From Schmidtea nova (lineage: Eukaryota), in NCBI GenBank assembly GCA_044892505.1, contig CM097883.1, positions 424,514,001-424,578,000 of the forward strand: a DNA stretch of 64,000 nt, in the 5' to 3' direction. Each line of letters begins with the position of its first letter. The first letter of the stretch is position 1. Both the position numbers and the translations under genes were made by a program. Of the stretch, positions 41,032 to 64,000 are shown piece by piece. Below the pieces are notes generated by a model, which saw only the letters and a program-made list of their open reading frames with translations, searched no databases and was not told where the DNA came from.

Positions 41032-42093
41032 TTACACAATCGTCTCGTTTGGTTCGTAGAAACCTTCGTCCTGAGGCTCTACTTGGTTCGTGGGGAGTGG
41101 TATCCAAACAACCCTGCTCCTCCACATTTCGACTTCATCTCGATACATGTGAGATATCTGGATCTCCTCGTCTAGCAAATATTCTAGGTAATTTGCTTGT
41201 TCTGTTAATGTTTCTATTTGTTTCTCTAATTCGATTACTTTTGTCTTTTGTTCGTCTTCTTTTATCATTTTTGTTACGGCTGCCGTTATACTTGCTTCTT
41301 TGGGTATTACTGATACTGTTACTCGTTTCTGTTTCAATTCTTCGTTTTCTTTCATCAAATTCGTTAAATTTTCCTCGTAACTTTGTTTCTCTTCCTTTAA
41401 CCTTTCCCTGGTTCTTTTTAGCTCTATTTTCTTTTGAGTAATCACCCCTTGATAACCATTTATATCTCTCTTCATCTCTTCTTCTTTCTGATTCCATATT
41501 CCGGTGAGCATAGTTTTCAGTTGTTCTTGATTAGCTAGTTCTTCTCCCATTCTTTGAACTTGATAGGTTAGTCCTTTAATTTTCTTTGCTTGTTCCCGGA
41601 TAAATTGCTGTCTCTTTGTATTCCATCTTTTATTCAACACTTCTTGGTGTATTTTCTGTTCTAACTCGTCTTTTAATTCGTCGATCTCTTTATATAATTT
41701 CCAGTCATCGCTATAAGCTGTCCTTTCTATTATTTCTCTAGCTTTTTCGTAAGATTCTTTCGCTTCTTTCTTCCAATATCTTGCTTGTTCTGTAATCGAA
41801 TACATCTTGTGTTCAGCTTCCATCTGCTGTCTGTCTCTTTCCTCTCGTCGCTCTTTCATCATTCTCTGGTAATATTCCTTTTGTTGTTGTAGCATTTTGT
41901 ATACTTCTTCTATTTTTTCTCGACTTCTTTGACTTGATCTTTCCGCTTCTTTTAATAATTCGGCTTGTCTCTCTATCTCCTCTTGCTTTCCATAATATGC
42001 ATTGACCCATATTTCAATCTGTTCTAGATGATCGCTAATCGCTTCTGCTTGATGCATCGTAATTTCCTGTAAGCATACTTCGATATTTCCCAT
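41032..42093 (-). CDS. 353-aa cargo coiled-coil protein
   Basis: Long open frame, E/K/Q-rich heptads; strong polypyrimidine-AG acceptor immediately upstream of ATG. Confidence 0.75.
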   Translation of the reverse strand: MGNIEVCLQEITMHQAEAISDHLEQIEIWVNAYYGKQEEIERQAELLKEAERSSQRSREKIEEVYKMLQQQKEYYQRMMKERREERDRQQMEAEHKMYSITEQARYWKKEAKESYEKAREIIERTAYSDDWKLYKEIDELKDELEQKIHQEVLNKRWNTKRQQFIREQAKKIKGLTYQVQRMGEELANQEQLKTMLTGIWNQKEEEMKRDINGYQGVITQKKIELKRTRERLKEEKQSYEENLTNLMKENEELKQKRVTVSVIPKEASITAAVTKMIKEDEQKTKVIELEKQIETLTEQANYLEYLLDEEIQISHMYRDEVEMWRSRVVWIPLPTNQVEPQDEGFYEPNETIV

Positions 42094-42211: not shown

Positions 42212-43594
42212 TTACGTCAACCATCCTTTTCTATCCGCTTTCTCATTCCTTTCCATTTCTATGTATAGGGTGTCTGCATATAATCGTTCCCATAAGCTTT
42301 CTTTCGTTATAAACATCGGTTCTCCCGCTGCTAATCCACATTCTGTGGTTGGTTTCTCGCTCGTACTCGCATGTTTCTCTGTCTCAAAGAATTTTTCCAC
42401 TGGTTTTGTTACACTTCTGATTCTTATAATGACTCCTACTTTCAAGGGCCATTCTACTAGGTCGTCGTATTCTCCTTTACATAGCGAGAAAAATATTGAC
42501 ACATGTGTTCCTCGTCCTCTTCCGTCTCCATTTGGGTATAGCTTCAATCTCACTTTAGCTCCGTTTCTCCATAAATAAAATGGTGGGCTTATTACTGCTG
42601 TTTTCGTCATATTTCTGGCCTCTGTTAATTTGTTTCTAAAATCTGTCACTTTCCACACATATGGTGCGATTGGTAACTTTTCCTCGGTATCTTGGGTGAG
42701 TTTGTTGTACTGGATTTTCATTCCTTTAGCCAGTTCTTCGATAGCTTTTATCTTTTCCTCCATCTTTTCTCGTGTTAGTTCGAATTGTTCTCTGGTTTCC
42801 AACAGTAGGTTTACCATTATCTTGTGTGACTCTATTTCTCTTTCTAATTTTTTGATTGTTTGTTCGGTTTCTTTTGTTGCTTCGTTTGTCATTTCCGCAT
42901 GCTTTAGCAATGCTTCCTCCAGATGTTGTTTCATGGTTTTTTGCGTTCTTTTCTCCATACATCCCTGTTTGTTATAAGGACATTCCCTTGGTTTCTCCGT
43001 GCACACTTTCCAATGTTCTTGTAATTTTACTTCTACCGTTATCTCGCATTCGTTTGAACATATTCCTATATATTGTCTACATACTTTCTCCTCTTTTACA
43101 TTCAGGTGTTCTTCTTCGATCTTTCTCCTCGTTTCTCGAGTTCCACAATATTCGCATAGACTTTCCTCTTCTTTACATTCATCTTTGTGCTGCTCTTTAT
43201 TCTTTATAGTTATTTTTTGTTGGCATTTGTTACATTCAGTTCTCTTCTCTTCGCAGTTCTCCAGATGGTTCTCGAGATCGCGTATTTGTCCTTGCCATAT
43301 ACATGGTTGATTTATACATTCGGTTTTCGTGTTCATGATTTCTCTCTGAGTTGCTCTATCTGGTCCGGTTTCTTCGAATTTTATTTGTCCTTCTTTGCAT
43401 TCTGGACATTCTGGTGGTCTTTTCATACTTAACTCGTGTATGCATTTGGTACATACTCTGCATCCGCATAGGGTTTGTCTTGGTTTCAATATTATGTTTT
43501 TACAATTTACACAAGTGAGTCTCTGACTCCATTTCCTGTTCTCGGCTCTCAAAATTTCGATTATCCGCTCTTCGGCTTTTCCTTCTGTATTCAT
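42212..43594 (-). CDS. TRAF: Intronless TRAF-family protein (RING - TRAF zinc fingers - coiled coil - MATH)
   Basis: CVNC..PRQTLCGCRVCTKC...CPEC; CINQPCIWQG...HLENC; YVWKVTDF...ISPPFY...LKLYPNGDGRGRGTHVSIFF...GEYDDLVEWP. Confidence 0.92.
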   Translation of the reverse strand: MNTEGKAEERIIEILRAENRKWSQRLTCVNCKNIILKPRQTLCGCRVCTKCIHELSMKRPPECPECKEGQIKFEETGPDRATQREIMNTKTECINQPCIWQGQIRDLENHLENCEEKRTECNKCQQKITIKNKEQHKDECKEEESLCEYCGTRETRRKIEEEHLNVKEEKVCRQYIGICSNECEITVEVKLQEHWKVCTEKPRECPYNKQGCMEKRTQKTMKQHLEEALLKHAEMTNEATKETEQTIKKLEREIESHKIMVNLLLETREQFELTREKMEEKIKAIEELAKGMKIQYNKLTQDTEEKLPIAPYVWKVTDFRNKLTEARNMTKTAVISPPFYLWRNGAKVRLKLYPNGDGRGRGTHVSIFFSLCKGEYDDLVEWPLKVGVIIRIRSVTKPVEKFFETEKHASTSEKPTTECGLAAGEPMFITKESLWERLYADTLYIEMERNEKADRKGWLT

Positions 43595-43685
43595 TCTACA
43601 ATGATATATACACTTGATTTGTTATCTATTTTTTGATTTTTCTTGTTTTTGTTTTTACATATTTACAATTTTTCGCTTTATTTAT

Positions 43686-44042
43686 CTACGGCTCGTTTGT
43701 TGAATCTGGTTCTGGGTCATTTTCTGATCTGTTTATTGCCCAATTTGTCCATCCATCCTCTGCTTCTTCTGTCTCTCCCATTGTTAAACGGTCTATCTCT
43801 ATTGCTTGTCTCTGATTTATGTCGCTCATCACTTGATTCTCTCTGGTAAGTTGCGTTATCAATCTCTGTTGCTCCTCGATTCTGTGGAGTTGTTCAAAAC
43901 TATTATTATAACTTTCGGATAACAAATTCTGTTTCTCAATTAACTGATTTTGTAGTGAGTTGATTGTTCGTATTAACATGTCACACTGGGCTTTCCATCG
44001 CATAGCCATAGTAGTTTCTGCTATTTCTTCCTGTTCGTTCAT
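43686..44042 (-). CDS. 118-aa cargo coiled-coil protein
   Basis: Open frame between polyprotein stop and TRAF; Q/E-rich heptads. Confidence 0.6.
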   Translation of the reverse strand: MNEQEEIAETTMAMRWKAQCDMLIRTINSLQNQLIEKQNLLSESYNNSFEQLHRIEEQQRLITQLTRENQVMSDINQRQAIEIDRLTMGETEEAEDGWTNWAINRSENDPEPDSTNEP

Positions 44043-44167
44043 TTTCTAAATTATATACATTAATCGTTTTCTCGATTTCTCTTTTTATATTTTTATAATA
44101 TCGATACCCATACTATTACGATAATGCATTGTTATTTACACTATTATTTACAGTCATATCCCGCCTC

Positions 44168-47100
44168 CTATATCACCATCACTGTCTTTCCTTCGTATCG
44201 CTCTTCATCTTCTATTTGTCTCCAAAATTCTTTACCTTTCGTCCTCCTTTGGAATTCTTTCTGTACTTCTTCCGGTAATTCTATACTGTAGTTCATAATC
44301 TTTATATCTGGCCAATGTGTTATTGGTTTCTTGTTGAATACATCATATATCCATATTATTAATAATACTGTTATTACTGGAATAGTTGCTGCTAGTATTC
44401 CCAGACCAATTAGTTCTCTAACTTGTTTGTTTACGTCCATCTTCGTAATTTCACTCTGGTTAATCATTGGTCCGTATTGTCCCTTTAGTTTATTTAGTAG
44501 TTGTTCTCGTTCTTGTTGTTTTCTTTTAACTTCTTTAATTACTTCTTCCGGCGTCCATCTTGCGTAAGGGTCTATTACTACTTGTTCCGCGTCCATTTGT
44601 TTCGTTGTCTGACTTAATTCTTTAAATTCGAGTTTTCTCACTTTCCCTTTGGACGTTGAGTTTACCGGTGTGTAGTACGTTTCGCATCTTTCCTGCTGAT
44701 TTCCTAATATGTCCGTCTTTTCTACCGCACATATCTCGTATTCGCTATTGAATTTCAGATTTCTGATACTTATTTCCTCTTTTCCTTTCACGTTTCCACA
44801 GTCTCGTGGCTGTCTTTCCCTTTGTTTCTGAACTATTACCCAACATATTTCTAACGTTTTATTGTCTATTCTCCATAGTATAAGAGTTGCTGTAGTATTC
44901 TTTTCGGTTCTTATTTGTATTTCTTGGTTTTTCTGTTGTCCATTAGGTTTAAAGGTAGTGGTATACCTCGCTTTTCCTTTGTTCCGTTGTCTTCTACTTT
45001 TTCGCGTTGTCTTTCCAACTCTTGTTCTGGTGGGTGTTTTATATAATTTGCATTCCAATTCATTTACTGTTATTTTGTCGCTTTTCCTAATCAGGCATAT
45101 TTCGTACGTTTGATTGCTTTCTAATCCTTCTATTTTTATTGTGGTTGTTCCTCTGTTTGTTCGACATTGCGGCGGTGTATTCTGGTTTGTTTTCTTTTCC
45201 TGCTTCTTCCAGCATACGCCTTTGACGTCCGGTTCTATTCCGGTTAACTCTAACATTATAGTTGTTCTCCGTTTGGTGCGTTTATTTCTTCTTCCTCGTC
45301 GTATGAACTTTATTGTTTCCCCAGGTTGAAATGTTTTACAAATTGTCGTTCCTTTCTTGTGTCTTTCTTTTTCTAGTAAACATAGTTCATACGTCCTGTC
45401 TGCTTTTACTTCTGATATCTTGGTTACTTTATTTGTTTTCCTTTTCCGACTCGTCTTTATTTCGCTTACGCCAATTTCTTCGTTGCTTCTGGCCCAACAC
45501 TTTGGGTTGGTGTTTTGGGTGTCGTTCATCTCTGTTACTGCCATTGTGTCAATGTCTATCCCTTCTTCTAACCGTTTTAACATTGTTAATATGAGTGCTA
45601 AACATAGTAATTCTGTTTGGTAGGTCACTCTTTCGGTCTCGTTTGTGGTTACTCTTGCTTCGGGCCTGTCTATGGTAATTTGTATAGTTGGCGTTGTTCG
45701 TCTGTCTATTGTCTGAGGTTTCTTGTTTTTTGTTCCTTGTGTCTCTGTTCCTCTACACTTTCCTACGACATAGTCTCCTTTGGATGGCTGCTGTATTGTT
45801 ATGGTTACTTTGGGTGTTAGGTAACTTGCACATGCAATTGTCTTATGTGATCTCGGATCCTTTGGTTTCCGAACGGTGCACATTCTGTACCAAGTATCTA
45901 GCTCTAGGTCATCGATCTCTATGATTTCTTGTTCGTATTCTGAGATCTTGCAATCCATTGGACTATTTTGTCCCGATATTTTGTCCTTTTTTGACCAACA
46001 TACTCGTTCGATTCCTTTTGCGTTTCCAATTTGTATTGTCGCTCTTTCTTCACATATCATTCCTTGAGTTGGACTAATTAAGGTCATGATTACCGTTAGT
46101 AATAATAGTTCTGGTTTAAAGAATGGGTTTATTGTTTGTTTGTAGCCTGTTCTTTTTATTTCGTTTTTATTTTTATAGTTGTTGTTTCTTTGTTTCCCAA
46201 ATTCATTGTTCTTATCATTTTTCTCTGTGTCCCTTCCTTTCTCTTCACTGTCCTCTTTATCTGATAACTCATGATCCTCTGGATTTTCTCGAGTACTATC
46301 GTCGTCGTTTCCTGTATTGTCACCTCCCTTTTGGTCGTTGAAAATGTCGTCCTCGACATTAATGGCTTCTATCATTTTTTCATACGTTATGGTTGTGAGT
46401 ATACTTGCTTCGTATTCTTGTGTTTCTGCCTGCTTAGGTATTTCCTTATCGGTTAATTTACAATCTAGAATCTCTTTCTTGGCTTTTATCCAATTATTAA
46501 GGTACGTTTTCATTAGTTCTTTCCATTTGTCCGTACGTTCTGTTTCCTTTGGGTTGTTTGTGAATCGTAAATCTTTTCTTCTCATGAAGATATCTATTAT
46601 CTTTGGCCATTTGTTTATTATTAATGCACACTTTATATACAAATTTTGGCCTTGTTCCATGCACTCGTTGATCCTGAATGCTGGTTCATTGGTGTTTGGG
46701 TTCATCCAATTGAGTATTGCTTCAGTTAGTTCAGCGTTATGCATCATGGAATGTACGCTAGCTTTTTTAACTGTCCTTGTAAGGTATTCTATTTCCTCCT
46801 GATTTGTGATTGTTTTTATGAAATTTATCACCTCCCAATTGTGCGCTAACAACGCTACGTCTAGTATTGAGCTGTCTTTGTTAGTTCTTCCCATGAGTCC
46901 TGCACCTGCTTCGTACAGTTCCTGTAACACTCGGGTTTTTGTGTTCGCTCTTGCTGCGAATATCATGAGGGTATCTCCCTTTTTATCTTTCATGTTCATG
47001 TCACTTCCGCAATCTTGCATCAACCGTGCAATTTCGACTACCCTCCTATTTTTTCCTGCTCGTAAGGCTCTATGTATTGGCAATACTCCATTCTTTGTTA

Positions 47101-50100
47101 ATAAGAAAGTCACTGGCATTTCTCTTTTTATGATCATCATATCGTTTTCATTGTAAGTTCCTTCCGCATATGCGTGTACCTTTTCCACAATTGATCCGAG
47201 TATCTCCAGTGTATGTTTAGAATTTTCGAATTCTGGTAATAGTTCTTTTGCTTTGTCCTGTATCGCATCTAACCTTTCTTGATATGGTACCTCTGCGCTG
47301 AAAAGTGGTGTAACTTTCCTTTTGCTTTCTCTTTCCTTTTGACATAGGAATTGTTTGCATTTTTCGGGGTGGTTTAATATGTCTATTAGTTTGTCATACT
47401 CTTCCTCCACCGTTTTGTATTTATCTTGAAAATTGGATATATCTTTGTAAGTTATCGTCTTGGTTAGCGATTTTGCACACCATTCCCTAATTTTCCTGAA
47501 TAATGCTTCTTTTTCACTTTCGAATTTACACTCCTCTTTGTTTTTGGAAATTATGATATTTCTTCTGTCTAATAACGTTAACAGTGCTTTCTGGTCACAA
47601 ACGAATTTTAATAGGAATTGTAATAACGTGTTTTGCCCTTCACTGTATACCTCGTTTATATTTAACACCCATGTATCATTTTCGGATCTTTTCCATTTTA
47701 TTAGCTTGCGTATTGTTTTGCAGTTACCGATTTTTATTGCCTCCTTGATTATATCACCTTTGATCAGTTCGTCTATTTCCCAAGTGGCCTTCTCGATTAT
47801 TTGTTTGAGCATTATCTGATTTGAGCTCCATATTGCGTGATTCAAGACTGTTTTGTTTTCTCTATCGCGTTCCGTCCAGTTGAAATCGGCATTTATCAAA
47901 AGGTCTATTATTGCTTTATCCGATTTGTAGATGGCTGCTATCATTAATGGTGTTTCTTGTTCGCTATTCCCAAAACCAAGGTGTTGGTTTGTTTCCTTAG
48001 CGATTTTTAGAAATTCTTTTACTCTCTCTACTTCTCCCCATTTTATGGCGTTATGTAATGCTGGTTGTCCTCCTATGTCTTGTAGTGAAAGTATTTCTGG
48101 AATTTTCTCCAGTAGTTCTGAAATGACTGGTTTTGTTGGTAGTCCCCTTGCGTAATCACTAATTATCGACTGAATATCTCTTAATATATCGTCTCTGACA
48201 TGCCATTTTCCCATTATTTCTCTGGCTTTTAGTACCATTTCCTTGTTTCTTTTTTCTTGTTGATTGTTTTCTGCTTCGGTACTTTCATTGGTTGCTCTGA
48301 GCATATTCATTCTGGCTGTCTGGGATCTGGTTATTATTCGTTCTTCTGGCGCTGTGGTTATTGTTTTTGGTACTTTCTTACATCTGCATGTATTAACGTA
48401 TATTGGTCGTATCAATGGTCGATTAACAAGTTTTACCTTCACATTGTTTTCCTTTTTGTATATAACTTCGTAAGGGCCTTTTCCTGGTCGTTGTAGTTTT
48501 TTAACGGTTCCTGGTATTATTTCTGGGGTTTCTATCATTACCCAATCTCCGGGTTTAAGATCATTTGTTTTAACATTTTTCTTTTGATCGTGTAGGTCCT
48601 TGTAACTTTCTTGATAAAACTTTATGTTTAGTTCTGCTGTCTTCCATATCTCTTGCATTCGTTCTTTGAATTTGGTGACGTAATCATCTTCCTCCATATA
48701 TTGAGACAAGGGTGGTTGATATTCAAGATCTATTGGCATATTGCATTCCCTTCCATACATTAATTGAAATGGACTCAATTTTGTTGCTGCGTGTATCGAC
48801 ATTCGGTATGCCATTAGACATAGCTTTACGTATTCATCCCAATCTGTTTGGTGTTTGCTTACATAATTGGATAACATTCGAATCAATGTGCCGTTAAATC
48901 TTTCCGTTTGTCCATTGGTTTGCGGATGATATGGTGACGTTCGTAATTTAGCTATTCTGAAGTAATTTGTTACTTCATCTAGTATTTCGCTCATAAAATT
49001 TGTTCCTTGATCTGTTAGTATTTGTTTCGGGGTTCCGTATCGACAACATATTTCTTCTACTAAAATTCTTGCTACGGTCTTTGCTTTTTGATCCGGCATC
49101 GCAAATGCCTCAGGGAATTTAGTCAAATAATCCGTTATTACCAATATATATTGATTCCCGTTTAAACTTTCTGGCAATGGTCCTATTACATCCATCGCAA
49201 TGGTAGTCATTGGTTCCGCTGGTATTGGCATGGGTTTTAAGGGATTTTTCCATTTCTTCCCACTATCCTTTCTTGTGGCACATGTTAAACAGTTCTTTAT
49301 CCATTCCTTTACGTCTTCGTCCATTGTGGGCCAATAATATTTTTGTCTCATGCGATCTAATGTTTTCTTATCGGACATATGTCCTCCTAGCTTTCCGTCA
49401 TGGTATTGAGTTATTATCTCTTTTCGTCTATTACCTGGCAGACACATTAATCGTTTTTCTCCATTTTGTATTAATAACCATCCTTTTTCTATTGTGTATC
49501 GATGTTGGTATTTCCTCATGTGTTCTTTTAACTCCGCATTGTCTTTGAATACATCCATATTCCGTGAGCTTAGGAATTCTATGATGGGTCTTAGTTCTTT
49601 ATCCTCTTGCTGATCTTTCTTTAACTCGCTGAAATCCAAATCCTCTGCTATCACTATGCATATTCTTTGCACTTCTGGGTCTGTTAGTTCTGGAAACGTT
49701 AATCTTGACATGCAATCTGCGTTGGCATTCGCTTTCCCTGATTTGAATTTTATATCTGGTGAATATTCTTGTAATTGCATCGCCCATCTCATTAATCTGC
49801 TGGATGTTTCCTTATGTTGTCCTAGCCATACAAGTGGTTGATGATCCGTGGTTATGCATATAACGTGTCCCCATAATAGATATTTAAAGTGTTTTATTGC
49901 TAATATTATTGCCAATGCTTCTCTTTCCGTTACCGAATAATTCTTCTCGTGTTTCTTGAATGTTCTGCTATAATATCCGATTACCCGCTCTTTTCCCTCG
50001 TCATCATATTGTCCTAACACTGCTCCTGCTGCATATCCACTTGCGTCGGTTGCGAGTAAAAATGGCTTCTTGAAATCCGGGTGAACCAATATTGGTGCAG

Positions 50101-53100: not shown

Positions 53101-56100
53101 TATGGAACAGAAAATCCATTTTATTGTTCATGTAAAGGTGTAATTTAACATCGTTCGTGTGCACTTTGCGTTTCGCACTAGGTACTTCTTGTTTTGATAC
53201 AAAAATGCCGGGGTAGTTGGTTTCCAACATAGCTACTCCGCATTTCAAGGCTGTTTTTCCTTTTACAAACCTCATTCCGATATCTGCATCTGAGGTAATT
53301 AGTACCGTTGGTGTATTTCTCATTTTAATTTGTTTTTCTTGTGTTCGGGTTTCAATCTTTTTCTCTCCCCGTACTGTGTCTTGAAGTATTTTTCCTCTTG
53401 CTGCCTCGTCTTCTTCTTCCTCTTGGAAGGTTTTCCCTTGTATCTCATCGAATTCTGCTTCCTTTAACAGTTGTAGTTGACATTCCTTTCCTCGTATCTG
53501 GTAGGTTAAGGTTGACATACCGGTTTGGCAAGTGTTTGACTCGATTTTGCACATTGGTAGGGTTTTCATTTCTCCCGTTGTTGGATCGAAGAATGCCTCG
53601 TACGTTTTTAATTCCACTGTATAAGTATCTATTACTACTAGGTTGGTTGCTGCTACTCCGAATATTGGATATGTTGCTCCTTGGCAATACCCTTCTCCTC
53701 CCGTAATAGCTCCTGCTACATAATATGTTTGTTGCAATATCACTCCCGTTTTTCCTCTTATCTTTACTCTATCTCTAGTCTCTACTTCTCCATGTTTAAA
53801 TAATTTTTCACAGTCTTCTCCTTGCAGCATTACCGATTCTCTTTCCGTTCCTGGCATCACGATTGCTGAATAATGGCGGTGTCCACAATAAAAAGCAAAT
53901 CTGGTTTTATAAACTTTGCATTCCCTGACCATTGTTCTTATCAGTTCAGCTTCCTGATATACGTGGTATAATTGTCTCTTTTTTAATGTTTTTAACTCCG
54001 TTGGGGTTGCGTCCTTACATTGTTCTGTCCCTCGTAGTGAATATTTCTCACCTAATGCCATTTGATCACAATCGAATACTTCAAATGCTGTTGCTCCGTC
54101 AGTACTAATCATCCATATTAACATCATCATAATGATAGAACTCAGGTTTAGTGATGATTTCCCGTTTCCTGTTCCCGACTTTTCCTTTTCCAATTCTCCC
54201 AATATCTCTTCGAATTTCTTTTTCAAATTTTTGGCTTGGTTTTTCTTTTGGTTCGTTTTTGTGAATGTTTCCCATCCTCCTTTACTGATGATGTACGGTT
54301 CTATTTCTTTCTCTATAATTTTGGCTGTATTCTTTATATGTCTTTCGAGTGCTGTAGGTTTCAGTCGACCTCTACTCAGTGTCAACAGATTGTAAATTGT
54401 GTATGCCATAGCTATTAAATATTTGTTATCCGTCTCTGCTCCTTCCGTTAACTTCTTTATCAACATCGTGGTTCCTTGCCAATCTAGGTGGTTTGACCTT
54501 GTCTTCTCTTTTATTAGTTCTGGTAGGATTGGTGCGATGGCGCTATGCAGTGATTTCGCCCTTTCGCTTATTTCGTTTATTCTCCACCATTTCTTTAATT
54601 CTGGATCGATTATTGCCAGTATTTCCATTAACATCTTTGATATCCATTCCTCGCCTTGGTATGTTTGTGTTGTTTCTTTTTCTTTCGTTTCGGCTATTTT
54701 ATTTAGTTTCTTTAAACACAAATCCCATTGATCCCGTCTTTTTTCCTCTCTTGATTTTATAACTACATTTGCTGGATCCATCTTGGGTCTACCTCTAGGT
54801 CGTTTATCCATTGTCGTGCCCGTTTCTACCAATCTTGTTTCTCGTCCAGTTTCTTCTGTGACGTCTCTTGGTTCATTGGCTCTTTCTTCTAACCATCTTT
54901 CCATTTCTTGTGTGAATTGTACATTTTCTACATTTGCCCTCCTTGCTTCCTCTTCTGCTATTTCATTTACTTCTTCGATGATTATTTCTTGTTCAACTTC
55001 ATCTTCGGTGTTGGTTACCGGTATTGCTGTTGGTAATTCTTGAATTCTTTCGAAAATATTATCATCCTTCTCTTTTGTTAGCTCTATTAACTCCTCTAAC
55101 ATATCATCGCTATCTGTAAAAATTTCGTCTACATCGTATGGTTCTGGTGGTGTTCTTTCTCTTGTCTCTCTTGGTGTTGTTTTAGCTTGTTCTGAGCTTG
55201 TTCCTGGAGTCATTACCGATTTCATTGGGCTCGGCGTACTCATACTTCCTTTTGGTTTCTTTTCCTCTTTCAATTTCAATGGTTGGCCTGCTATTGCTGC
55301 CACTGTCAATGTATTTGCGATATCTAATTGCGCTGGCGTTATTCCAATTTCCAAGCTGTTATCTAATGATCGTCCTTGGTGTTGTAAATGGAATGGTGGT
55401 TCATATCTCAATTTCTTTTTAATGTCTCGAACTTTCTCCGCTATCCCTACCCAAAACTCTTCCTTTTCTTGGTTCGGATATACTATTCTTAGGTGTACTT
55501 TCTGTGGCGATTCCTGCGAGAATTCTTGGTTTCTCCATTTTTTAATTACGTGATCCAATTGTTCTGGACACCACTCGTTAACTCTTTTGTATTCGGCGAT
55601 TGCTTTTGCTACTTTACGCAAGCATGTTATGTCTTCTCCATTAACTACGAAAAAATCTGCGAGACCTTTTACTACTTTTCTCTTGCCGTGCGCATTGGTT
55701 TTTAATATTTCGACAAATTCTTCCGTTTTTTGTTTCTCTCTTTCCAACCACATGGTTGCCGTTTCTGGTCCGTCTAAATCCGCTGGCATGGCTTTTCTTG
55801 TTACCATACAGACTCTTCCGGTTTCCGGTTTGTGATCGTCTTCTATGCCTATTTCATATTCTTCTTCGTACTCGCCTGCTTTTGGTTCCCAACATTTTCC
55901 TCGTTCGTTCCATTTCTTTTCTACGGGTGTTAGTAATCGTCTGTTGAGATTGAGTTCTTCTAATACATCTTCCCATTCTGGCCAAATCCGCCAATTTCGA
56001 TAAATGTCTACTATTTGTTGTAATTTATGCACAACTTCTTTTTGTCGTTCCCGTTCTCTTTTCTCATCCTTAGCAGTTTCTCTTGGTGTATCGTCCATTC

Positions 56101-59100
56101 TGATAACGTGGATGGTTTGATGATTATCCCATATACCAATTTTATATAGCCGTCTTTCATCGTGATCCCATAATACATGTTCGTTGTATTTCATGATTAT
56201 GTCATCTTCCCATTCTTCTTCTGGTTCTCTTTGTAATAGTGTCTCGTTGATGACATTTACTAATTCTTTTATGGTACAATCTGCTACCACTTCAATTTCT
56301 TTGGTATCCTCATTAGGTAACTCTACTGCAATTTTCAGATCTGTTATTTTCCCTTGTCTGAACATTGCTTTTCCCATTTTGGCAATTACTTTTCCGTATG
56401 AGATCTGTGACCATCTCGTGTGACTTGTGTCACGTATGCACTCGATACATCGTTTCAACTTTTCGTATTCGCTTCTCATTAACTCCTTTCTATGTTTTTT
56501 GATTTGTGGGATGATTTGTTCTATCATGGAATTTAGATTTCCTCGTAAGATTCGTCCTTTTTCGTATTCTAACCGTGGTTTTATCTTCCTCTCGAAACAC
56601 ATATTTGCTTCCTTTGCTACTTCTTGTAGGTTCTCTTCTCTCTTATCATCGCATATCGATAATGTTGTCACCTCTCCTGGCCATATGCCTGTTTCTATCA
56701 AATGCGTCCTTTTCTTCACTAGTCCATTCTGTGAATAGAGGAATTTGTTTTTATATGAACTCCCTAATCTATCTTCTACCCATTGATAAATATCTTCCGT
56801 GAGTGGAGTTTTGATCCAAATCCTTGGCAAACATGTTTTTATCTCTATTAGGATTATATATTCATGGAGTGGTTCTTTTAATAATTTTCCTACGTATTGG
56901 CTTAGTGTTTCTACTTCCCGGCCTGGTAACCACTCTTTATAGTTCATTTGTAATATCGCTCTCATGAATTTCCGATAGTGTTTCTTGTCGATGAACTCCT
57001 CATTATATATTACTTCTAGCGCGTTATCTAATAATTTCTGGATCTCGTCCTCTTTTACTTGAATAGTTTCTGGTGTCTTTACTACTTCTATCTTTTTGTC
57101 TTCAATTTCCGGTTCGTTTAGCATATCTCCGGCTAGACTACTGACGTCACTATCCTCTTCGTCATCTGAAAAATTCTTTGCCTGGCCTCTCAACATGTTA
57201 ATGTGTTTTATCTGGTTGATTTCACTTGGTGTATTTTCCGTTGGTCTTGTTTCACTTTTAATAGCTTTTTGTGTTGATTCACTCTTGTCGTCTACTACTT
57301 CGACCTTTCTCAATTTTCGTTCTAACTCGTCTATTTCTCCCAACCGTCTTCGTATCATTTTCCCTTTAAATATTCGACTGATTCGTGTTTCGTGACGCAC
57401 TGGCGATGGAATTCCTTCTGGTTCTATTTCCTTGATTACCATCACATTTCTTTTTGTCTCTACTACTCCCATGTTTTCCCATGTATCCGTTAGTTTCAAT
57501 TTTACTTCTGGTGCATCTTCTATTTTTAGGAATGCTTCTCTGGGCAGTTTCGTTACTCCTGGAGCCATTTCATTCACTTTGTTGAACAATGTTCCTACTT
57601 CTTCCTTTATGTTATATTGGAATCGAAACATATGACCGTTTGGCAGGATTACCATCATTCCCTTTTTCCAAATCATTCTTTTCTCTTCCTGGTTTGCCTC
57701 TGTTTCCACTTCCTTTTCTATTTCTGTTTCTTCGCTTCCTGGTACTATTTCTTTTCGATTTTCGTTATTGGTTGGATTCAGGTTTGTTGGATTTATTTCT
57801 GGCACAGTCTCTTTCTCGTGGGTATTTGCTTGATTGGTTGCTCTCATCATATTAATTCTTAGAGGTTGTCGTTCTCTTTCTTGCTGTTTTTGTTCCTCTT
57901 CTCTTTGTACTCTTGCCCATTCCTGAGCATGTCGTGCTTGACTTTCCCGATTCAATCGTTCGTTTTCGCTTTCTATTTTTCTCATCATATTGATTTGTTG
58001 TTGACCTGTTTGCGGATTTCCTCTGGTTGTATTGTTTATCAGCTCCGTCAATCTTTGAACCTCTTGCATTAAATGTATCTCTTTAGTGGTATTTTTATTT
58101 TGGTTATTATTATTACTATTTGGTTGGTTTCCGTATTCCGGTTGGTTTCCATTATTTGGCTGATTTCCATAATTCTGTCGGTTTCCACCAGTTGGTTGGT
58201 TTCCATAGTTTTGTCGGTTTCCGGTATTCTGCCAGTTTCCTCGTTGATTGCTTCTTTGTCCGCAATTTCTTGATAGGTGTCCAGGTCGTCCACAATTAAA
58301 ACAGGTTATTGTGTAACATCTGCTCTCTGAATGCCCTTTTACTCCACATTTTCCACAATTCAAGTTCTGATAACATTCTTGTTGCCAATGTCCCAATTTC
58401 CCACATGTTTTGCATTGTTTCGTTGGTCCTTGGGGGTTGTAATTGTTTTGATTTCCGTAATTTGATACTTTATTCCCTTCATTCCTTCGTTGCGGTGGTG
58501 GTCGGTTTAATTGTTGTGAATTTGGAATGTGGTTATTCAGGTTCACTTCTTGTTCGTTTTGTGCTGTATCCATAGCTAAATAGATTCTACCATCATTTCC
58601 TATCATGTGTAGTTCAAATCTATTAGCTGTTTCTAATGCTTGGTCGATGGTTTTACAACCTTGACATCCAACTTGCGCTCTTATGTCGGGTCTTCTTAAT
58701 CCTCCCACAAAGATAGCTGCCATTAATTCCTCATTTATTGGACTGTCTTGATTGAAAATCAACTTTGCTAACTTTTTCAATTCGCTTGCATATACCGCAT
58801 TCGATTCATTTATCTTTTGTTTCCTCATTGAGAATTCCGTAAATGCCTCATTCAATACTTTATTTATTCCGAAGGTTTGTTGGAAAAAGTCCTTTATCGC
58901 TGACCAACTTGTAGGTGGATTAATTCCATTTTTTGCTTCCAAATATAGATCTAATGCGCTATCTTTTAAATATAGCTGAATTCTGCTTACAGTTGTTTCT
59001 GGTTTCCACTTGCATACTTCCACGAATATGCCAAATTCCTTTAAGAAAGTTTCTAATTTACTCGCATCTCCATTAAACGGTTCTCCGGAAAATTTGTCTT

Positions 59101-59125
59101 TTATCTCTTCTCTGGGTTCGCTCAT
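44168..59125 (-). CDS. 4985-aa Gag-Env-Pol-cargo polyprotein in one uninterrupted ORF
   Basis: Single frame in ORF track; domains listed separately. Confidence 0.95.
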   Translation of the reverse strand: MSEPREEIKDKFSGEPFNGDASKLETFLKEFGIFVEVCKWKPETTVSRIQLYLKDSALDLYLEAKNGINPPTSWSAIKDFFQQTFGINKVLNEAFTEFSMRKQKINESNAVYASELKKLAKLIFNQDSPINEELMAAIFVGGLRRPDIRAQVGCQGCKTIDQALETANRFELHMIGNDGRIYLAMDTAQNEQEVNLNNHIPNSQQLNRPPPQRRNEGNKVSNYGNQNNYNPQGPTKQCKTCGKLGHWQQECYQNLNCGKCGVKGHSESRCYTITCFNCGRPGHLSRNCGQRSNQRGNWQNTGNRQNYGNQPTGGNRQNYGNQPNNGNQPEYGNQPNSNNNNQNKNTTKEIHLMQEVQRLTELINNTTRGNPQTGQQQINMMRKIESENERLNRESQARHAQEWARVQREEEQKQQERERQPLRINMMRATNQANTHEKETVPEINPTNLNPTNNENRKEIVPGSEETEIEKEVETEANQEEKRMIWKKGMMVILPNGHMFRFQYNIKEEVGTLFNKVNEMAPGVTKLPREAFLKIEDAPEVKLKLTDTWENMGVVETKRNVMVIKEIEPEGIPSPVRHETRISRIFKGKMIRRRLGEIDELERKLRKVEVVDDKSESTQKAIKSETRPTENTPSEINQIKHINMLRGQAKNFSDDEEDSDVSSLAGDMLNEPEIEDKKIEVVKTPETIQVKEDEIQKLLDNALEVIYNEEFIDKKHYRKFMRAILQMNYKEWLPGREVETLSQYVGKLLKEPLHEYIILIEIKTCLPRIWIKTPLTEDIYQWVEDRLGSSYKNKFLYSQNGLVKKRTHLIETGIWPGEVTTLSICDDKREENLQEVAKEANMCFERKIKPRLEYEKGRILRGNLNSMIEQIIPQIKKHRKELMRSEYEKLKRCIECIRDTSHTRWSQISYGKVIAKMGKAMFRQGKITDLKIAVELPNEDTKEIEVVADCTIKELVNVINETLLQREPEEEWEDDIIMKYNEHVLWDHDERRLYKIGIWDNHQTIHVIRMDDTPRETAKDEKRERERQKEVVHKLQQIVDIYRNWRIWPEWEDVLEELNLNRRLLTPVEKKWNERGKCWEPKAGEYEEEYEIGIEDDHKPETGRVCMVTRKAMPADLDGPETATMWLEREKQKTEEFVEILKTNAHGKRKVVKGLADFFVVNGEDITCLRKVAKAIAEYKRVNEWCPEQLDHVIKKWRNQEFSQESPQKVHLRIVYPNQEKEEFWVGIAEKVRDIKKKLRYEPPFHLQHQGRSLDNSLEIGITPAQLDIANTLTVAAIAGQPLKLKEEKKPKGSMSTPSPMKSVMTPGTSSEQAKTTPRETRERTPPEPYDVDEIFTDSDDMLEELIELTKEKDDNIFERIQELPTAIPVTNTEDEVEQEIIIEEVNEIAEEEARRANVENVQFTQEMERWLEERANEPRDVTEETGRETRLVETGTTMDKRPRGRPKMDPANVVIKSREEKRRDQWDLCLKKLNKIAETKEKETTQTYQGEEWISKMLMEILAIIDPELKKWWRINEISERAKSLHSAIAPILPELIKEKTRSNHLDWQGTTMLIKKLTEGAETDNKYLIAMAYTIYNLLTLSRGRLKPTALERHIKNTAKIIEKEIEPYIISKGGWETFTKTNQKKNQAKNLKKKFEEILGELEKEKSGTGNGKSSLNLSSIIMMMLIWMISTDGATAFEVFDCDQMALGEKYSLRGTEQCKDATPTELKTLKKRQLYHVYQEAELIRTMVRECKVYKTRFAFYCGHRHYSAIVMPGTERESVMLQGEDCEKLFKHGEVETRDRVKIRGKTGVILQQTYYVAGAITGGEGYCQGATYPIFGVAATNLVVIDTYTVELKTYEAFFDPTTGEMKTLPMCKIESNTCQTGMSTLTYQIRGKECQLQLLKEAEFDEIQGKTFQEEEEDEAARGKILQDTVRGEKKIETRTQEKQIKMRNTPTVLITSDADIGMRFVKGKTALKCGVAMLETNYPGIFVSKQEVPSAKRKVHTNDVKLHLYMNNKMDFLFHRGQASLQKVYYDLINNDCILNREILKTKLAVAITNPDSAMPLLPLREGHFGRVVGEVMYVYICKKTNTKVATMTKLQPGQCTNELEIEYKGKVRYVQPVTRIINPVSFEPNPFNCSNAYGPLYQNPDGNWVMFPSRTEVPAPREFELMQLSKGRKFKDVDVSNMGFYSAKDLEAARQNILFPARREAVLSSIVTITGGTNYQGGPNYELLLSPAHFKKATENMMKAMWGRFLIFGQMMAGILGVILIIQIIRVIITQMLACFDIYKREKKVNWKLVVGFLPFLAKTMVLHGHSKDIHGIKRLLKILAKMKGTDEEVGRKFKKIMNNEQARQRLKKERKGLWERMKGYRTQDDSSDDDDDDNEGGQVFKNQVPQYVEKNPAEMWKCYAPPPTMYQEPTPGMRQNTMQMMPMTNIYPMIPEDYRTRRCRSVDPQGDSHTIAVMSSNTGPVLTTTIEINGREIEAMIDTGANISAIDIKWIPQEQRRDIERTNVHVIACSKEVVEVAGRWWVKIKHQNTEIETYVAVIPALSVPCIIGTDLMPALFKEIVIDLGTMRLKDRTGQICAIEAKVTSSKQIIVPARREKICFVKIDPTIEGDMIFEPSKRFEKRKSLPMARGLVSANDNGEIPINVVNFDEEDKIIYENERLGKLTPMMDIEIPIKEGVKEEEPTWNIDSQLLNEDQKKQLERLLIEYKDIFAASDLDLGTCDVTLHTIPLTDETPIALRPYKLAEAQKSVAEAEVQKMLDAEVIEPSCSPWQFPVVMVKKKDGTQRFCIDYRRLNAVTKRDTYPLPDINEMLLTLQGAAYFTSLDLKSGYWQIKMKEEDKEKTAFTIGRDLYQFRKMPFGLTNAPASFQRCMNFVTHGIKQCMVYIDDLLIYSSTFEQHIQDIRDVFVRLRQWKLKLKPSKCDWAKEKVTFLGHIVSAKGKEPDPRNIDKVKECPVPKTITQIQEFLGLCGYYRKFIKDYAGIAKPIQELVKKDVSFIWGSEQQTAFETLRDKLITAPILVHPDFKKPFLLATDASGYAAGAVLGQYDDEGKERVIGYYSRTFKKHEKNYSVTEREALAIILAIKHFKYLLWGHVICITTDHQPLVWLGQHKETSSRLMRWAMQLQEYSPDIKFKSGKANANADCMSRLTFPELTDPEVQRICIVIAEDLDFSELKKDQQEDKELRPIIEFLSSRNMDVFKDNAELKEHMRKYQHRYTIEKGWLLIQNGEKRLMCLPGNRRKEIITQYHDGKLGGHMSDKKTLDRMRQKYYWPTMDEDVKEWIKNCLTCATRKDSGKKWKNPLKPMPIPAEPMTTIAMDVIGPLPESLNGNQYILVITDYLTKFPEAFAMPDQKAKTVARILVEEICCRYGTPKQILTDQGTNFMSEILDEVTNYFRIAKLRTSPYHPQTNGQTERFNGTLIRMLSNYVSKHQTDWDEYVKLCLMAYRMSIHAATKLSPFQLMYGRECNMPIDLEYQPPLSQYMEEDDYVTKFKERMQEIWKTAELNIKFYQESYKDLHDQKKNVKTNDLKPGDWVMIETPEIIPGTVKKLQRPGKGPYEVIYKKENNVKVKLVNRPLIRPIYVNTCRCKKVPKTITTAPEERIITRSQTARMNMLRATNESTEAENNQQEKRNKEMVLKAREIMGKWHVRDDILRDIQSIISDYARGLPTKPVISELLEKIPEILSLQDIGGQPALHNAIKWGEVERVKEFLKIAKETNQHLGFGNSEQETPLMIAAIYKSDKAIIDLLINADFNWTERDRENKTVLNHAIWSSNQIMLKQIIEKATWEIDELIKGDIIKEAIKIGNCKTIRKLIKWKRSENDTWVLNINEVYSEGQNTLLQFLLKFVCDQKALLTLLDRRNIIISKNKEECKFESEKEALFRKIREWCAKSLTKTITYKDISNFQDKYKTVEEEYDKLIDILNHPEKCKQFLCQKERESKRKVTPLFSAEVPYQERLDAIQDKAKELLPEFENSKHTLEILGSIVEKVHAYAEGTYNENDMMIIKREMPVTFLLTKNGVLPIHRALRAGKNRRVVEIARLMQDCGSDMNMKDKKGDTLMIFAARANTKTRVLQELYEAGAGLMGRTNKDSSILDVALLAHNWEVINFIKTITNQEEIEYLTRTVKKASVHSMMHNAELTEAILNWMNPNTNEPAFRINECMEQGQNLYIKCALIINKWPKIIDIFMRRKDLRFTNNPKETERTDKWKELMKTYLNNWIKAKKEILDCKLTDKEIPKQAETQEYEASILTTITYEKMIEAINVEDDIFNDQKGGDNTGNDDDSTRENPEDHELSDKEDSEEKGRDTEKNDKNNEFGKQRNNNYKNKNEIKRTGYKQTINPFFKPELLLLTVIMTLISPTQGMICEERATIQIGNAKGIERVCWSKKDKISGQNSPMDCKISEYEQEIIEIDDLELDTWYRMCTVRKPKDPRSHKTIACASYLTPKVTITIQQPSKGDYVVGKCRGTETQGTKNKKPQTIDRRTTPTIQITIDRPEARVTTNETERVTYQTELLCLALILTMLKRLEEGIDIDTMAVTEMNDTQNTNPKCWARSNEEIGVSEIKTSRKRKTNKVTKISEVKADRTYELCLLEKERHKKGTTICKTFQPGETIKFIRRGRRNKRTKRRTTIMLELTGIEPDVKGVCWKKQEKKTNQNTPPQCRTNRGTTTIKIEGLESNQTYEICLIRKSDKITVNELECKLYKTPTRTRVGKTTRKSRRQRNKGKARYTTTFKPNGQQKNQEIQIRTEKNTTATLILWRIDNKTLEICWVIVQKQRERQPRDCGNVKGKEEISIRNLKFNSEYEICAVEKTDILGNQQERCETYYTPVNSTSKGKVRKLEFKELSQTTKQMDAEQVVIDPYARWTPEEVIKEVKRKQQEREQLLNKLKGQYGPMINQSEITKMDVNKQVRELIGLGILAATIPVITVLLIIWIYDVFNKKPITHWPDIKIMNYSIELPEEVQKEFQRRTKGKEFWRQIEDEERYEGKTVMVI
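44346..46115 (-). other. C-terminal type I membrane module: internal signal peptide, four Cys-containing FN3-like repeats, TM
   Basis: PELLLLTVIMTLISPTQG signal; repeats CW...I.(G/D/N)L...(T/S).YE(I/L)C...C..Y.T at ~45810-46060, 45320-45510, 45030-45265, 44665-44895; TM LIGLGILAATIPVITVLLIIWIY 44346-44413. Confidence 0.6.
46815..48085 (-). other. Ankyrin-repeat region (two clusters)
   Basis: GQPALHNAIKWG, QETPLMIAA, NKTVLNHAI (47790-48085); GVLPIHRAL, GDTLMIFAAR, DSSILDVAL (46815-47097). Confidence 0.8.
48380..49420 (-). other. Integrase (HHCC, D,D(35)E, GPY/F)
   Basis: HDGKLGGH...CLTC; MDVIGPL (D 49190), TDQGTNF (D 49010), GQTERFN (E 48902); GKGPYEV. Confidence 0.95.
49700..50070 (-). other. 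RNase H
   Basis: LATDASGYAAGAVLGQ; NYSVTEREALAI; TDHQPLVWL. Confidence 0.95.
50330..50970 (-). other. Reverse transcriptase (Ty3/gypsy type)
   Basis: FCIDYRRLN, YPLPDINEML, LDLKSGYWQI, MPFGLTNAPASFQR, VYIDD (50483-50494). Confidence 0.97.
51430..51760 (-). other. Aspartic protease
   Basis: EAMIDTGANISAI (DTG 51701-51709), CIIGTDL. Confidence 0.95.
52230..54147 (-). other. Envelope glycoprotein, chuvirus-G / herpes gB-like (class III) type, with signal peptide and TM
   Basis: Signal LSSIIMMMLIWMISTDGATA; FDC..SL..C; ECKV..R..FYCG; CG..L.ETNYP.IFV; Y.NNK; LYD/YYD...C.L; GE..Y..C; C.NEL...PVTRI; GFYS..DL...I.FP; WGRFLIFGQMMAG TM. Confidence 0.85.
54263..54650 (-). other. Bcl-2-like helical domain
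   Basis: BH2-like IEPYIISKGGWETF at 54263-54301, preceded by ~120 aa of predicted amphipathic helices; BH1 NWGR not conserved. Confidence 0.6.
55290..57665 (-). other. Up to four ubiquitin-like (beta-grasp) domains
   Basis: Best: LKIAVELPNEDTKEIEVVADCTIKELV...IMKYNEHVL...RLYKIGIWDNHQTIHVI (56095-56340); weaker at 57430-57665, 56655-56855, 55290-55500. Confidence 0.5.
58262..59125 (-). other. Gag: capsid domain plus three CCHC zinc knuckles
   Basis: PFNGD...W..IKDFF...RKQKINES..YA.EL..LA...FVGGL; CKTCGKLGHWQQEC, CGKCGVKGHSESRC, CFNCGRPGHLSRNC (58262-58414). Confidence 0.92.
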
Positions 59126-60105
59126 TTCAATTCCGCTGTCTGTAGTTATTTTACTTTCGTTTCCTCTTGTTTCTAGTTCACTGTTAGGTTCGTCACTCGA
59201 ATTTCGGTCGATCTCAGTTTCTTTTGCTGATTCGTTATCTGATGCTTTACTATCGTTATCGGTATCGTCACTTTCTGTTTCTTGTTCTACTTCGTCTTCT
59301 ATTTCTTCTATATAATCGTTGTTGGTTTTGTCGACTTCTATTTCACTTATTGGGTTTCTCTCGGGTTCTGCTTAATTTTCTTTGTTGCTTGAACTGTTGC
59401 TTGTTACTGATAGTTTATCGTTTTCGATAATCGACTTTTGTATTATTATCTGCCTTGCTTTACTTCCTTTTAGGCCTTTCTGATTATTATTCTTGGTAGC
59501 TTTATTCTTTTCTGCTGGTTTTATTATGACACTCTTTTCTCCTTTTCTCAACGGGATTACTTTTGTATACTCAATTTTCCTGTCTTATCGTGTTCCGATT
59601 CTTTTCTTCCTTGGTTGCTTGGTTTGGTTTGATTGATTTATCTAAAATACAAATGTCACTTCAACGATACTCTATTGTTATCGTTGCGCTTTTATTCCCT
59701 TTTTACGGGACTTCTCATTACTGGGTTTCTATTATTTTTCCCCATTCCCAGATTCCCCTTTATTTAAGTCTATTTAAATTATCTATATACTAGTCACAAT
59801 TATCTATTTAGTCATAACAATTATCTATCGGTTACTAAAATACATCAATTATTTTTCCCGCGGTCTCCCAATTTATTTGTCGTTCGAACGCTCTAATTCC
59901 CTGAGTCATTTGACTCGATTATTATTTTATCATCTCTTTATCTTTCTCTCTGCTAGCCTCTAATTATTAATTCTGCCGGTCTTTCCGGTCAGCTCCTATT
60001 TCTCAATTCTACTTGCATGCATTATTTTAGGTCGCATAATCAGCTTTACTCGCATTTCTCAATTCCTGGTGCGCACTATTCTCATTATCGTCGACGATCA
60101 CAACT

Positions 60106-60741
60106 CTGGGCCTATATTCCCTCTGTTGTTATTTCTTATCACTTGCAACCCTGGGCCTATATTCCCTCCGTTGCTACTCAAACGATTGTAACCCTGGGCT
60201 TATATTCCCTCCGTTACTATCTTCCTTTAATTTTAAATAATTGCAACCCTGGGCCTATATTCCCTCCGTTGCTACTCAACAATTGTAACCCTGGGCCTAT
60301 ATTCCCTCCGTTACTATATATCCGGATATCCCTATTGGCTCCTTTGGCCTCTAATTAATATCAATTATCTCAAATGGCTCTTATGGCCTCAAATTCATAT
60401 CTCAATTATCTCAAATGGCTCTATTGGCCTTAAATTCATATCTCAATTATCTCAAATGGCTCTATTGGCCTTAAATCGTATCTCTCAATAACGCCTAGCT
60501 AGGTCATTCAATATGGCTCTTTGGCCTCAACCCTTTGTTTCAAGGGACAAACCGCTGATAACCCTTTGTTTCAAGGGACAAATTCTAATAACCCTTTGTT
60601 TCAAGGGACAAACCGCTGATAACCCTTTGTTTCAAGGGACAAATTCTAATAAACCTTTGTTTCAAGGGACAAACCGCTGATAACCCTTTGTTTCAAGGGA
60701 CAAATTCTAATAACCCTTTGTTTCAAGGGACAAATTCTAAT
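60106..60741. repeat. Three adjacent tandem arrays in the 5' leader
   Basis: 5x CTGGGCCTATATTCCCTCCGTT core (60106-60312); ~41-bp TGGCTCTATTGGCC units (60336-60528); 7x 30/31-bp AACCCTTTGTTTCAAGGGACAAA units (60529-60741). Confidence 0.9.
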
Positions 60742-61218
60742 AAATTTTCCTTAACCGGTTAATCGTAATTCTTAACTTCGCTAGCGACTACAATTTCTCA
60801 GCTGAGTTCTCTCAATTTCATGCGAGCTGATTATGCACCTCTTATTTTTCTCTATAATTCCTCGATTCTTTGTTTTATTACTAATTCTTTCGCTGATCAG
60901 TCATAATTCAATTTTTATTATTTTCTCTGCGCGCATCTTACCTCATCAGGGTTTTCCCTATTTCTCTCCCCAACCAAAATATACAAAAAGATCGCGTTGG
61001 TCTACTAATGCGGGATGTGGTGATCAATCACATCACAAAAGCTTCCCAACATTTGCGATTGGCCCCTTTCTATATACCCCGAGTGGGTTGATCAACTGGT
61101 ACCTCCCAATGGGTGCTTAACGGACTACTTGACAGTAGCTCAAAAATTAATTAACATTGTTGATTGCTCCCCTGACTTTGTCATTCGATACAATATATTA
61201 ACACACTCTAAATATTTA

Positions 61219-61680
61219 TTATAAATAAACTACAATTCTATCAGCTACAGAGAAATTGCACATGGGGCACTTATCACACTTATTCGCACAGTTTTTACAA
61301 AATCGAAAATGTCCGCATGGTAGAAACATTATTTGGATTTCACTGTCTTCGCATATGTAACATCGTTTATATTGTTTTGTTGCCTCGACCCCTTGCGACA
61401 TCCATCGGTTATAAGTTAGGTTTAACTGCTGTTCTATATGTCGGCATCTGATATTCAACTCGGCATCCTCTAATCGTGCTTTGTACCATTTATATCGCGT
61501 ATTTATATCGAGTTTATTTACTTTCTCTATGATTTTTATTAACTCAGTTGTTTCCTCCGTTTGTGTCGTAGGTTCCTCATATTCGGATGCTCTTATTCGG
61601 GTTATTTTTTCGCAGACTGTCTCAAATGTATCGTTCTCGGTGTTGAAAAATTCCTCGATTTCTTTCAGTTTTTCCTCCAT
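61219..61680 (-). CDS. 153-aa protein with C-terminal IAP-type RING, no BIR domain
   Basis: CYICEDSEIQIMFLPCGHFRFCKNCANKCDKCPMCNFSVADRIVVYL-stop. Confidence 0.85.
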   Translation of the reverse strand: MEEKLKEIEEFFNTENDTFETVCEKITRIRASEYEEPTTQTEETTELIKIIEKVNKLDINTRYKWYKARLEDAELNIRCRHIEQQLNLTYNRWMSQGVEATKQYKRCYICEDSEIQIMFLPCGHFRFCKNCANKCDKCPMCNFSVADRIVVYL

Positions 61681-61933: not shown

Positions 61934-61951
61934 ATCCCGGCTGAGCCCCCA
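61934..61951 (-). promoter_or_regulatory. Primer-binding site, tRNA-Pro type
   Basis: TGGGGGCTCAGCCGGGAT, 16/18 to the vertebrate tRNA-Pro PBS TGGGGGCTCGTCCGGGAT; 6 nt inside the LTR end. Confidence 0.85.
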
Positions 61952-63899: not shown

Positions 63900-64000
63900 G
63901 ATTCCAAAACGATGCTGAATTTTATAATAGTTACAATTTACATCAATAATTAATCATAGTAAATGTTATCTCTCATCGTGATATCTTTATTATTTGCCTA

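Follow-up and report, generated by a model that had tools for sequence, protein, structure and literature searches.

A Burro-like retroelement of Schmidtea nova carrying TRAF, RING, Bcl-2-fold, ubiquitin-like and ankyrin modules that appear to be maintained by selection

On the minus strand of a 64,000-nucleotide stretch of the Schmidtea nova genome (GCA_044892505.1, contig CM097883.1, positions 424,514,001 to 424,578,000; this whole stretch is hereafter called the window, and position 1 is its first letter), a single Ty3/gypsy element with long terminal repeats (LTRs) carries a RING protein, ubiquitin-like (Ubl) domains, a Bcl-2-fold domain, ankyrin repeats and a TRAF, all of them on that strand and inside positions 42212-61680. 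That one retroelement carries all these modules had been proposed in an initial annotation made from the sequence alone, and is borne out. The reading favoured here, with a probability of about 0.68, is that this host-derived cargo acts as a set of viral-type accessory proteins favouring the survival of the expressing cell and tuning ubiquitin-dependent stress signalling. The toolkit is real, and the idea is not new: the strategy was implied to be novel, but the same cargo and the same hypothesis are already in print for the planarian Burro elements (PMC6431247). What is added to that accessible review is a confident Bcl-2 fold devoid of the BH1 motif, a fold of the ubiquitin type and the finding that each cargo module is under purifying selection, which together show that the cargo is retained as functional accessory genes, like those of large DNA viruses. 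The newest observation comes from outside the window, where a BIR-containing IAP is borne by a high-copy sister family lacking reverse transcriptase (RT) and envelope gene (env) in 16 of 16 copies examined, with a cargo that likewise appears to be under selection.

Domains and folds of the cargo

The Bcl-2-like domain announced by the initial annotation lies at positions 54236-54730 (amino acids ~1466-1630 of the polyprotein). As a single sequence, the region gave no match in the PDB, the representatives library or the Atlas, and only an E-value of 0.11 in Pfam. It aligns by position with a sister-family domain that matches Pfam Bcl-2 with an E-value of 1.8e-5, which does not reach the curated cut-off, and profiles built exclusively from element sequences match Bcl-xL (E 7e-7 and 2e-5). 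With ten element sequences as input, an AlphaFold model reached a predicted local distance difference test (pLDDT) score of 83.7, and, of its 50 structural matches, those ranked 1 to 34 all have the Bcl-2 fold (best Z 13.2, root-mean-square deviation (rmsd) 2.8, 136 residues aligned); the ranking given by Foldseek agrees, with E-values of just 6e-3 or worse. Both the fold and the BH2 motif (GGW retained) of the Bcl-2 family are present, and the assignment holds. The viral Bcl-2-fold proteins, namely KSHV Bcl-2, BHRF1, A179L and the poxviral N1, A52 and B14, share this fold at very low sequence identity but, unlike them, the window domain is embedded in a Gag-Env-Pol polyprotein.

Upstream in the same polyprotein, four Ubl segments were delineated. 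A joint profile combining them with seven segments from sister families retrieved ubiquitin-like chains in 34 of 34 matches (best E 2e-5). Ubl3 (55265-55510), the sole segment folded, adopts a beta-grasp (Z 8.5, rmsd 1.8, 70 residues aligned) in a 535-aa model with a mean pLDDT of 44, usable for Ubl3 only; its homologues match Rad60-SLD, and UBX/ASPL p97 adaptors are found among its fold matches. Ubl2 (56090-56356), an integral ubiquitin-like domain, has on its own a weak Pfam match (Ubiquitin_4, E 0.038). The putative Ubl1 (57410-57676) and Ubl1b (56660-56878) are members of the joint alignment; taken singly, neither matches Pfam, and a profile combining the helical region, for which a death fold is conceivable, with Ubl1b and Ubl2 gave nothing significant. 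The proposal of ubiquitin-like domains is thus sustained for the fold of Ubl3, weakly for Ubl2, and not individually for Ubl1 and Ubl1b. A C-terminal di-Gly, the hallmark of a conjugatable modifier, is found in none of the four segments, and a role of ubiquitin as a pestivirus-like processing signal was ruled out on the same ground.

The TRAF open reading frame (ORF; 42212-43594, 460 aa) is intronless and full-length. Pfam identifies zf-TRAF and MATH (MATH_2, E 2e-21), the N-terminus matches the RING-zinc structures of TRAF2/5/6, and the C-terminus the MATH domains of TRAF5/3/2 (E 1e-22). RING and zinc fingers, coiled coil and TRAF-type MATH are all in place, as in animal TRAF2/3/5, which confirms the full TRAF initially reported; unlike these animal proteins, it has no intron and a Cys occupies the position of the usual His in its RING. 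A search for homologues of this TRAF returned just three unnamed proteins with 23-25% identity, which do not indicate a donor. In an unrooted tree of MATH domains, for which 16 of 30 loci were dropped as duplicates, short or stopped, five element families stand on one side of a branch and 14 non-element loci on the other (support 90/93, not starred); over MATH, the window TRAF is 28-40% identical to the non-element MATH loci of this genome. The MATH domains of the element families would then form a single old clade, compatible with, rather than proof of, one old capture of the kind that the initial annotation looked for. Many of the non-element TRAF/MATH loci of this genome cluster near the end of one contig.

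The RING ORF (61219-61680, 153 aa, intact at that length in subfamily B) has a helical N-terminus and a C-terminal C3HC4 RING of the IAP/MDM2-like type (PF13920, E 9e-12). Because no BIR was found in the window, whether by Pfam scans of ORFs or by tblastn of a sister-family BIR against its whole length, this protein is an IAP-like RING and not an IAP, so that only the type of RING stands from the first description. As for the ankyrin repeats (46751-48088), they form two blocks located after the integrase that resemble each other (Ank_2, E 8e-13), and their best PDB matches are ankyrin-1/2 and DARPins; judged by these similarities, the blocks are generic.

Copies and selection

Searching the genome with the TRAF DNA returned 587 candidate copies, the 40 scored being all 99-100% identical. 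The Bcl-2-like protein search gave 1,012 candidates, of which 150 were scored, 81 at 94-100% identity (subfamily A, that of the window copy) and 69 at 83-92% (mostly subfamily B). Of the 81 subfamily-A matches, 33 are located in an open frame of 5,000 codons or more, and the full 460-aa TRAF ORF is present in seven of nine other A copies. Two B copies share the gene order of the window and possess an extra FN3-like unit, the first of them having all small ORFs intact.

Ratios of nonsynonymous to synonymous substitution rates (dN/dS) were computed pairwise by the Nei-Gojobori method between the window and the two subfamily-B copies (Ubl1b not being computed alone); as synonymous divergence (dS) lies between 0.29 and 2.6 depending on the part of the internal region, the values are rough and partly saturated. 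For the cargo they range overall from 0.06 to 0.30, among them 0.09-0.24 for Ubl1-3, 0.07 for the Bcl-2-like domain, 0.06-0.09 for the ankyrins, 0.09-0.10 for the RING, 0.14-0.15 for the TRAF and 0.15-0.27 for the FN3-like module, compared with 0.05-0.06 for env and 0.01 or less for RT. Against family E, the cargo gives 0.08-0.15 where dS is computable. Comparisons of A copies with one another, which gave 0.01-0.03 for Bcl-2, Ubl3 and env, were set aside, the loci having been ranked by protein similarity. From these ratios, all cargo modules are under purifying selection rather than decaying. Besides, the modules recur in the same order in sister families and, given this recurrence and the selection, their presence is not the product of chance. 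The variation of dS also suggests recombination within the internal region.

Relationship to Burro elements

The planarian Burro/GYPSM1 elements carry MATH_TRAF_C, BIR, ankyrin, BCL2-like, Ubi2/SUMO-like and dUTPase-like modules along with an in-frame env, and have been proposed to meddle with apoptosis and ubiquitination (PMC6431247). The window element shares with them a giant size (~25-30 kb in Burro/GYPSM1), a single polyprotein of ~5,000 aa with env in frame between gag and pol, here between the BCL2-like domain and the protease, a BCL2-like domain preceding env, Ubl upstream, ankyrins and MATH/TRAF (PMC6431247). It differs by its TRAF, encoded at full length in an ORF of its own that lies downstream of the polyprotein, whereas MATH resides in ORF1 in Burro1, within the polyprotein and upstream of Ubl and BCL2, and in an upstream ORF in the D. 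tigrina element (PMC6431247), as well as by the absence of a BIR. In addition, the FN3-like C-terminal membrane module and the multiplicity of Ubls of the window element are not mentioned in the accessible Burro section of that review (PMC6431247). By comparison with these published descriptions, the window element is a Burro-like subfamily; homologue searches with regions of the polyprotein found nothing.

In Burro1, the B-IAP, which combines RING and BIR, protects stem cells from caspase-mediated apoptosis (Lee et al. 2026, as cited in PMC13465017). The RING ORF of the window resembles it in being a RING module that is carried by a Burro-type retroelement and for which a role in cell survival is proposed, but has the RING only, a BIR-RING protein being found here on the RT-less sister family.

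Sister families and a family without reverse transcriptase

Among the sister families, the polyprotein of C is shorter and contains Ubl, Bcl-2 and env, ankyrin being absent, E resembles A at ~40-95% depending on the module, and F (422 candidates) has MATH inside the polyprotein, the layout described for Burro1. No BIR was found in family F, either in one copy examined throughout or in four more examined over a 5.5 kb stretch that reaches from the end of the polyprotein into the LTR. The BIR search of the genome gave 1,295 candidates, most of the 150 scored lying in a frame of ~399 codons, and the DNA of this BIR-IAP frame gave 1,293 candidates. In 16 of the 16 copies examined, env, RT, RNase H and integrase are missing from their usual place; Ubl, protease and ankyrin are directly adjacent in 15, of which 11 hold them as one open frame of ~1,030-1,070 codons, and one copy has a larger deletion and one has gag remnants. 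This family keeps RING, Ubl, protease, ankyrin, TRAF, BIR-RING IAP and coiled-coil ORFs. One copy is bounded by TG...CA LTRs of ~4.3 kb with an ACAG duplication and has the same motif resembling a primer-binding site (PBS) as the window element; its LTR is 82-88% identical to that of family F and did not match the A and B LTR stretches tested. With IAP loci ranked by BIR score, one copy as reference and pairs that are not independent, pooled dN/dS among RT-less copies is 0.09-0.25 for the protease, ankyrin, 215-aa ORF, TRAF and IAP, and 0.45 for Ubl.

A tentative proposal, put at somewhat below even odds, is that the Burro-like elements of this genome share out their tasks between helpers and a satellite. 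The autonomous families A, B, E and F would supply Gag-Env-Pol together with the Bcl-2-like domain and TRAF/MATH, without BIR; the commoner LTR family devoid of RT, integrase and env would be a mobile anti-apoptosis cassette protecting cells in which the helpers replicate, and would have kept only protease, Ubl, ankyrin, TRAF and BIR-IAP under purifying selection. From LTR similarity, family F may be the one that mobilises the RT-less family, and an autonomous BIR-bearing family may exist outside the sampled copies. If the RT-less family is a true satellite, its survival cargo would be selected independently of replication genes, and whether host and transposon are mutualists could be tested family by family. 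No description of the RT-less BIR-IAP family was found in the literature searched, though the text or supplements of the original Burro papers may hold one.

A second high-copy element of this genome encodes a canonical ubiquitin with a terminal di-Gly, fused in frame to the DUF1759 gag that follows it. We take this gag to be of the BEL/Pao type; some copies of the element are preceded by an Hsp70 fragment.

Proposed function and alternatives

Under the favoured reading of survival and stress signalling, the element's own protease would cut the polyprotein at a hydrophobic, cleavage-like motif, found repeatedly where modules meet in A, B, C, D, E and F, and would thereby release the ankyrin block and fragments that contain Ubl domains. 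The Bcl-2-fold domain would stay on the cytosolic face of the endoplasmic reticulum (ER), anchored by a stretch doubling as the Env signal peptide, and the Env transmembrane (TM) helix would return pol and ankyrins to the cytosol. A second signal with the C-terminal TM helix would export the membrane protein tentatively assigned as FN3-like. The TRAF and RING, made from separate ORFs, could serve as an adaptor and an E3 ligase in survival and stress pathways that depend on TRAF; in S. mediterranea, loss of host TRAF raises cell death (PMC7586133). The caspase-binding function of a BIR is not predicted to be encoded in the window element.

Several observations weigh against this reading. The receptor groove of the TRAF differs from that of TRAF5 at several positions, presumably ones important for receptor binding. 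The BH1 motif NWGR, as seen in Bcl-xL, is missing from the Bcl-2-like domain in A, B, E and F, because of which the domain probably works in a non-canonical manner. B-IAP, with its RING and BIR, is the sole Burro module reported to counter apoptosis, and it is incomplete in the window. Purifying selection is evidence of use, not of which use. In addition, and bearing weakly, BURRO1 RNA interference gave no rescue of the smedwi-2 phenotype (PMC8532177). That the element keeps host cells alive, as first suggested, is plausible in view of the published Burro1 precedent (via PMC13465017), while canonical BH3 sequestration is unsupported with NWGR absent.

An unlikely alternative is that the modules were repurposed for the life cycle of the element rather than for host signalling, that is for polyprotein folding, ER anchoring of Env, handling by p97 and the proteasome, or chromatin tethering. 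The Ubls without di-Gly and the UBX/ASPL adaptors among the fold matches would fit such uses, as would the lack of NWGR; likewise, in all autonomous families examined the Bcl-2-like domain stands immediately before the Env signal, and the RT-less family lacks both this domain and env. This leaves a stand-alone full TRAF and a RING unexplained, however, as well as the apparent selection on TRAF, BIR-IAP and ankyrins in a family that has neither pol nor env.

Dampening of innate immunity was the other function initially put forward, and it fares poorly. In its specific form, where the ankyrins would be IkB mimics and the NWGR-less Bcl-2 fold a poxviral-type inhibitor of the NF-kB immune pathway, it is considered improbable. 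The TRAF is closest to TRAF2/3/5 structures, poxviral N1, A52, B14 and A46 do figure among the fold matches of the Bcl-2-like model (Z 8.1, 7.7, 6.9 and 5.5, respectively), and in S. mediterranea the host TRAFs belong to the immune genes that TBK1 induces (PMC13563047). Yet the cellular Bcl-2 proteins far outscore the poxviral ones (Z 11-13), and no IkB was present among the 60 listed of 108 PDB matches of the ankyrin blocks, which leaves the IkB-like label of the ankyrins unsupported. Moreover, the NF-kB/RHD homologues of S. mediterranea have diverged and are difficult to recognise, and the strongest NF-kB candidate played no part in the TBK1-dependent transgene response (PMC13563047).

Finally, neutral hitch-hiking of captured host fragments, or a pseudogenised cargo, has hardly any credit left: 48 of the 81 subfamily-A matches do lie outside an uninterrupted full-length frame, as expected for dead copies, but between subfamilies the dN/dS of every module, the check named at the outset for this point, is far below 1 and the small ORFs are all intact in A and B.

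Layout of the element and its surroundings

The element spans position 36889 to window-equivalent position 65241, i.e. 28,353 bp. Its two LTRs, at 36889-40172 (3' LTR) and from 61958 to the window end at 64000 and on to 65241 (5' LTR), are both 3,284 bp long, 100% identical and bounded by TG...CA, and an ATAT target duplication is found on both flanks; the insertion is therefore recent, and the copy is intact. Paired LTRs, target duplication, the order protease, RT, RNase H and integrase, and an env place it among the Ty3/gypsy elements with env. Each LTR holds two ORFs of 194 and 158 aa (37451-38830 and 62520-63899) with no clear Pfam family, whose relatives in subfamily B LTRs are 37% and 30% identical. 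Another subfamily-A copy is 97-98% identical to the window internally and only ~92% in the LTR, a difference suggesting either recombination or the existence of LTR subtypes. The 5' LTR is immediately followed, at 61934-61951, by a PBS-like 18-mer that also follows the LTR of the RT-less family. We take it to resemble a tRNA-Pro PBS.

The genes follow one another as RING (153 aa), polyprotein (4,985 aa), a 118-aa ORF, TRAF (460 aa), a 353-aa ORF and a 190-aa ORF. The leader between RING and gag contains several tandem repeat arrays (60084-60743; units of 30/61, 41 and ~45 nt). An acidic open frame (59126-59371) precedes the polyprotein's first Met; it is longer in other copies and open in B, E and F too, and is possibly translated. 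A 5' truncation of the window copy was considered, its open frame of 5,067 codons being shorter than the usual 5,140, and rejected, the first Met being identical in other A and B copies.

The polyprotein (44168-59125) is arranged as Gag, Ubl repeats, Bcl-2-like domain, Env, protease, RT/RNase H, integrase, ankyrins, FN3-like ectodomain and TM helix. Gag (58226-59125) has three CCHC knuckles, and the homologous region of family F matches Retrotrans_gag. Ahead of the Bcl-2-like domain, an RGRP motif (54791-54817), presumably AT-hook-like, is kept in A, B and C. The hydrophobic stretch between this domain and Env (54086-54148), visible in the sequence and under the hydropathy cut-off used, may serve as both Env signal peptide and membrane anchor. 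Env itself (52337-54085), which the Pfam scan of the polyprotein places in frame between gag and pol, is a mononegavirus-type fusion glycoprotein (PF24664, E 3e-68) with a TM helix at amino acids 2245-2263. Protease, RT, RNase H and integrase were assigned by Pfam within 48326-51781, a conserved segment without Pfam match lying between protease and RT at the dUTPase-like position. At the C-terminus (44354-46114), a signal-like stretch, Cys-containing FN3-like repeats and a TM helix are suggestive of a type I membrane protein; fn3 is weak in Pfam for the window, reaches E 3e-4 in family F and is an Atlas lead at 0.90, and the profile of this region found no match in the PDB.

Of the smaller ORFs, the 118-aa one (43686-44042) is coiled-coil-like and conserved in B, D and E. 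The 353-aa coiled-coil ORF (41032-42093, dN/dS 0.08), without Pfam match, probably corresponds to the published 'Smc'-like motif, and the 190-aa ORF (40377-40949, dN/dS 0.27-0.30) has signal-like and TM-like segments.

The element interrupts a decayed transposase-like sequence at 35621-36824, which has no Pfam match and which, by its motifs, we take to be hAT-like; a separate hAT dimerisation domain lies at 17849-18313. Weak PLA2-like and Pox_A32 matches at 105-455 and 2707-3120 are possibly decayed Polinton-like fragments. Elsewhere in the genome, Polinton/adintovirus-like genes (A32-type ATPase, pX and integrase-chromodomain) occur, with near-identical tandem units of ~8.3 kb.

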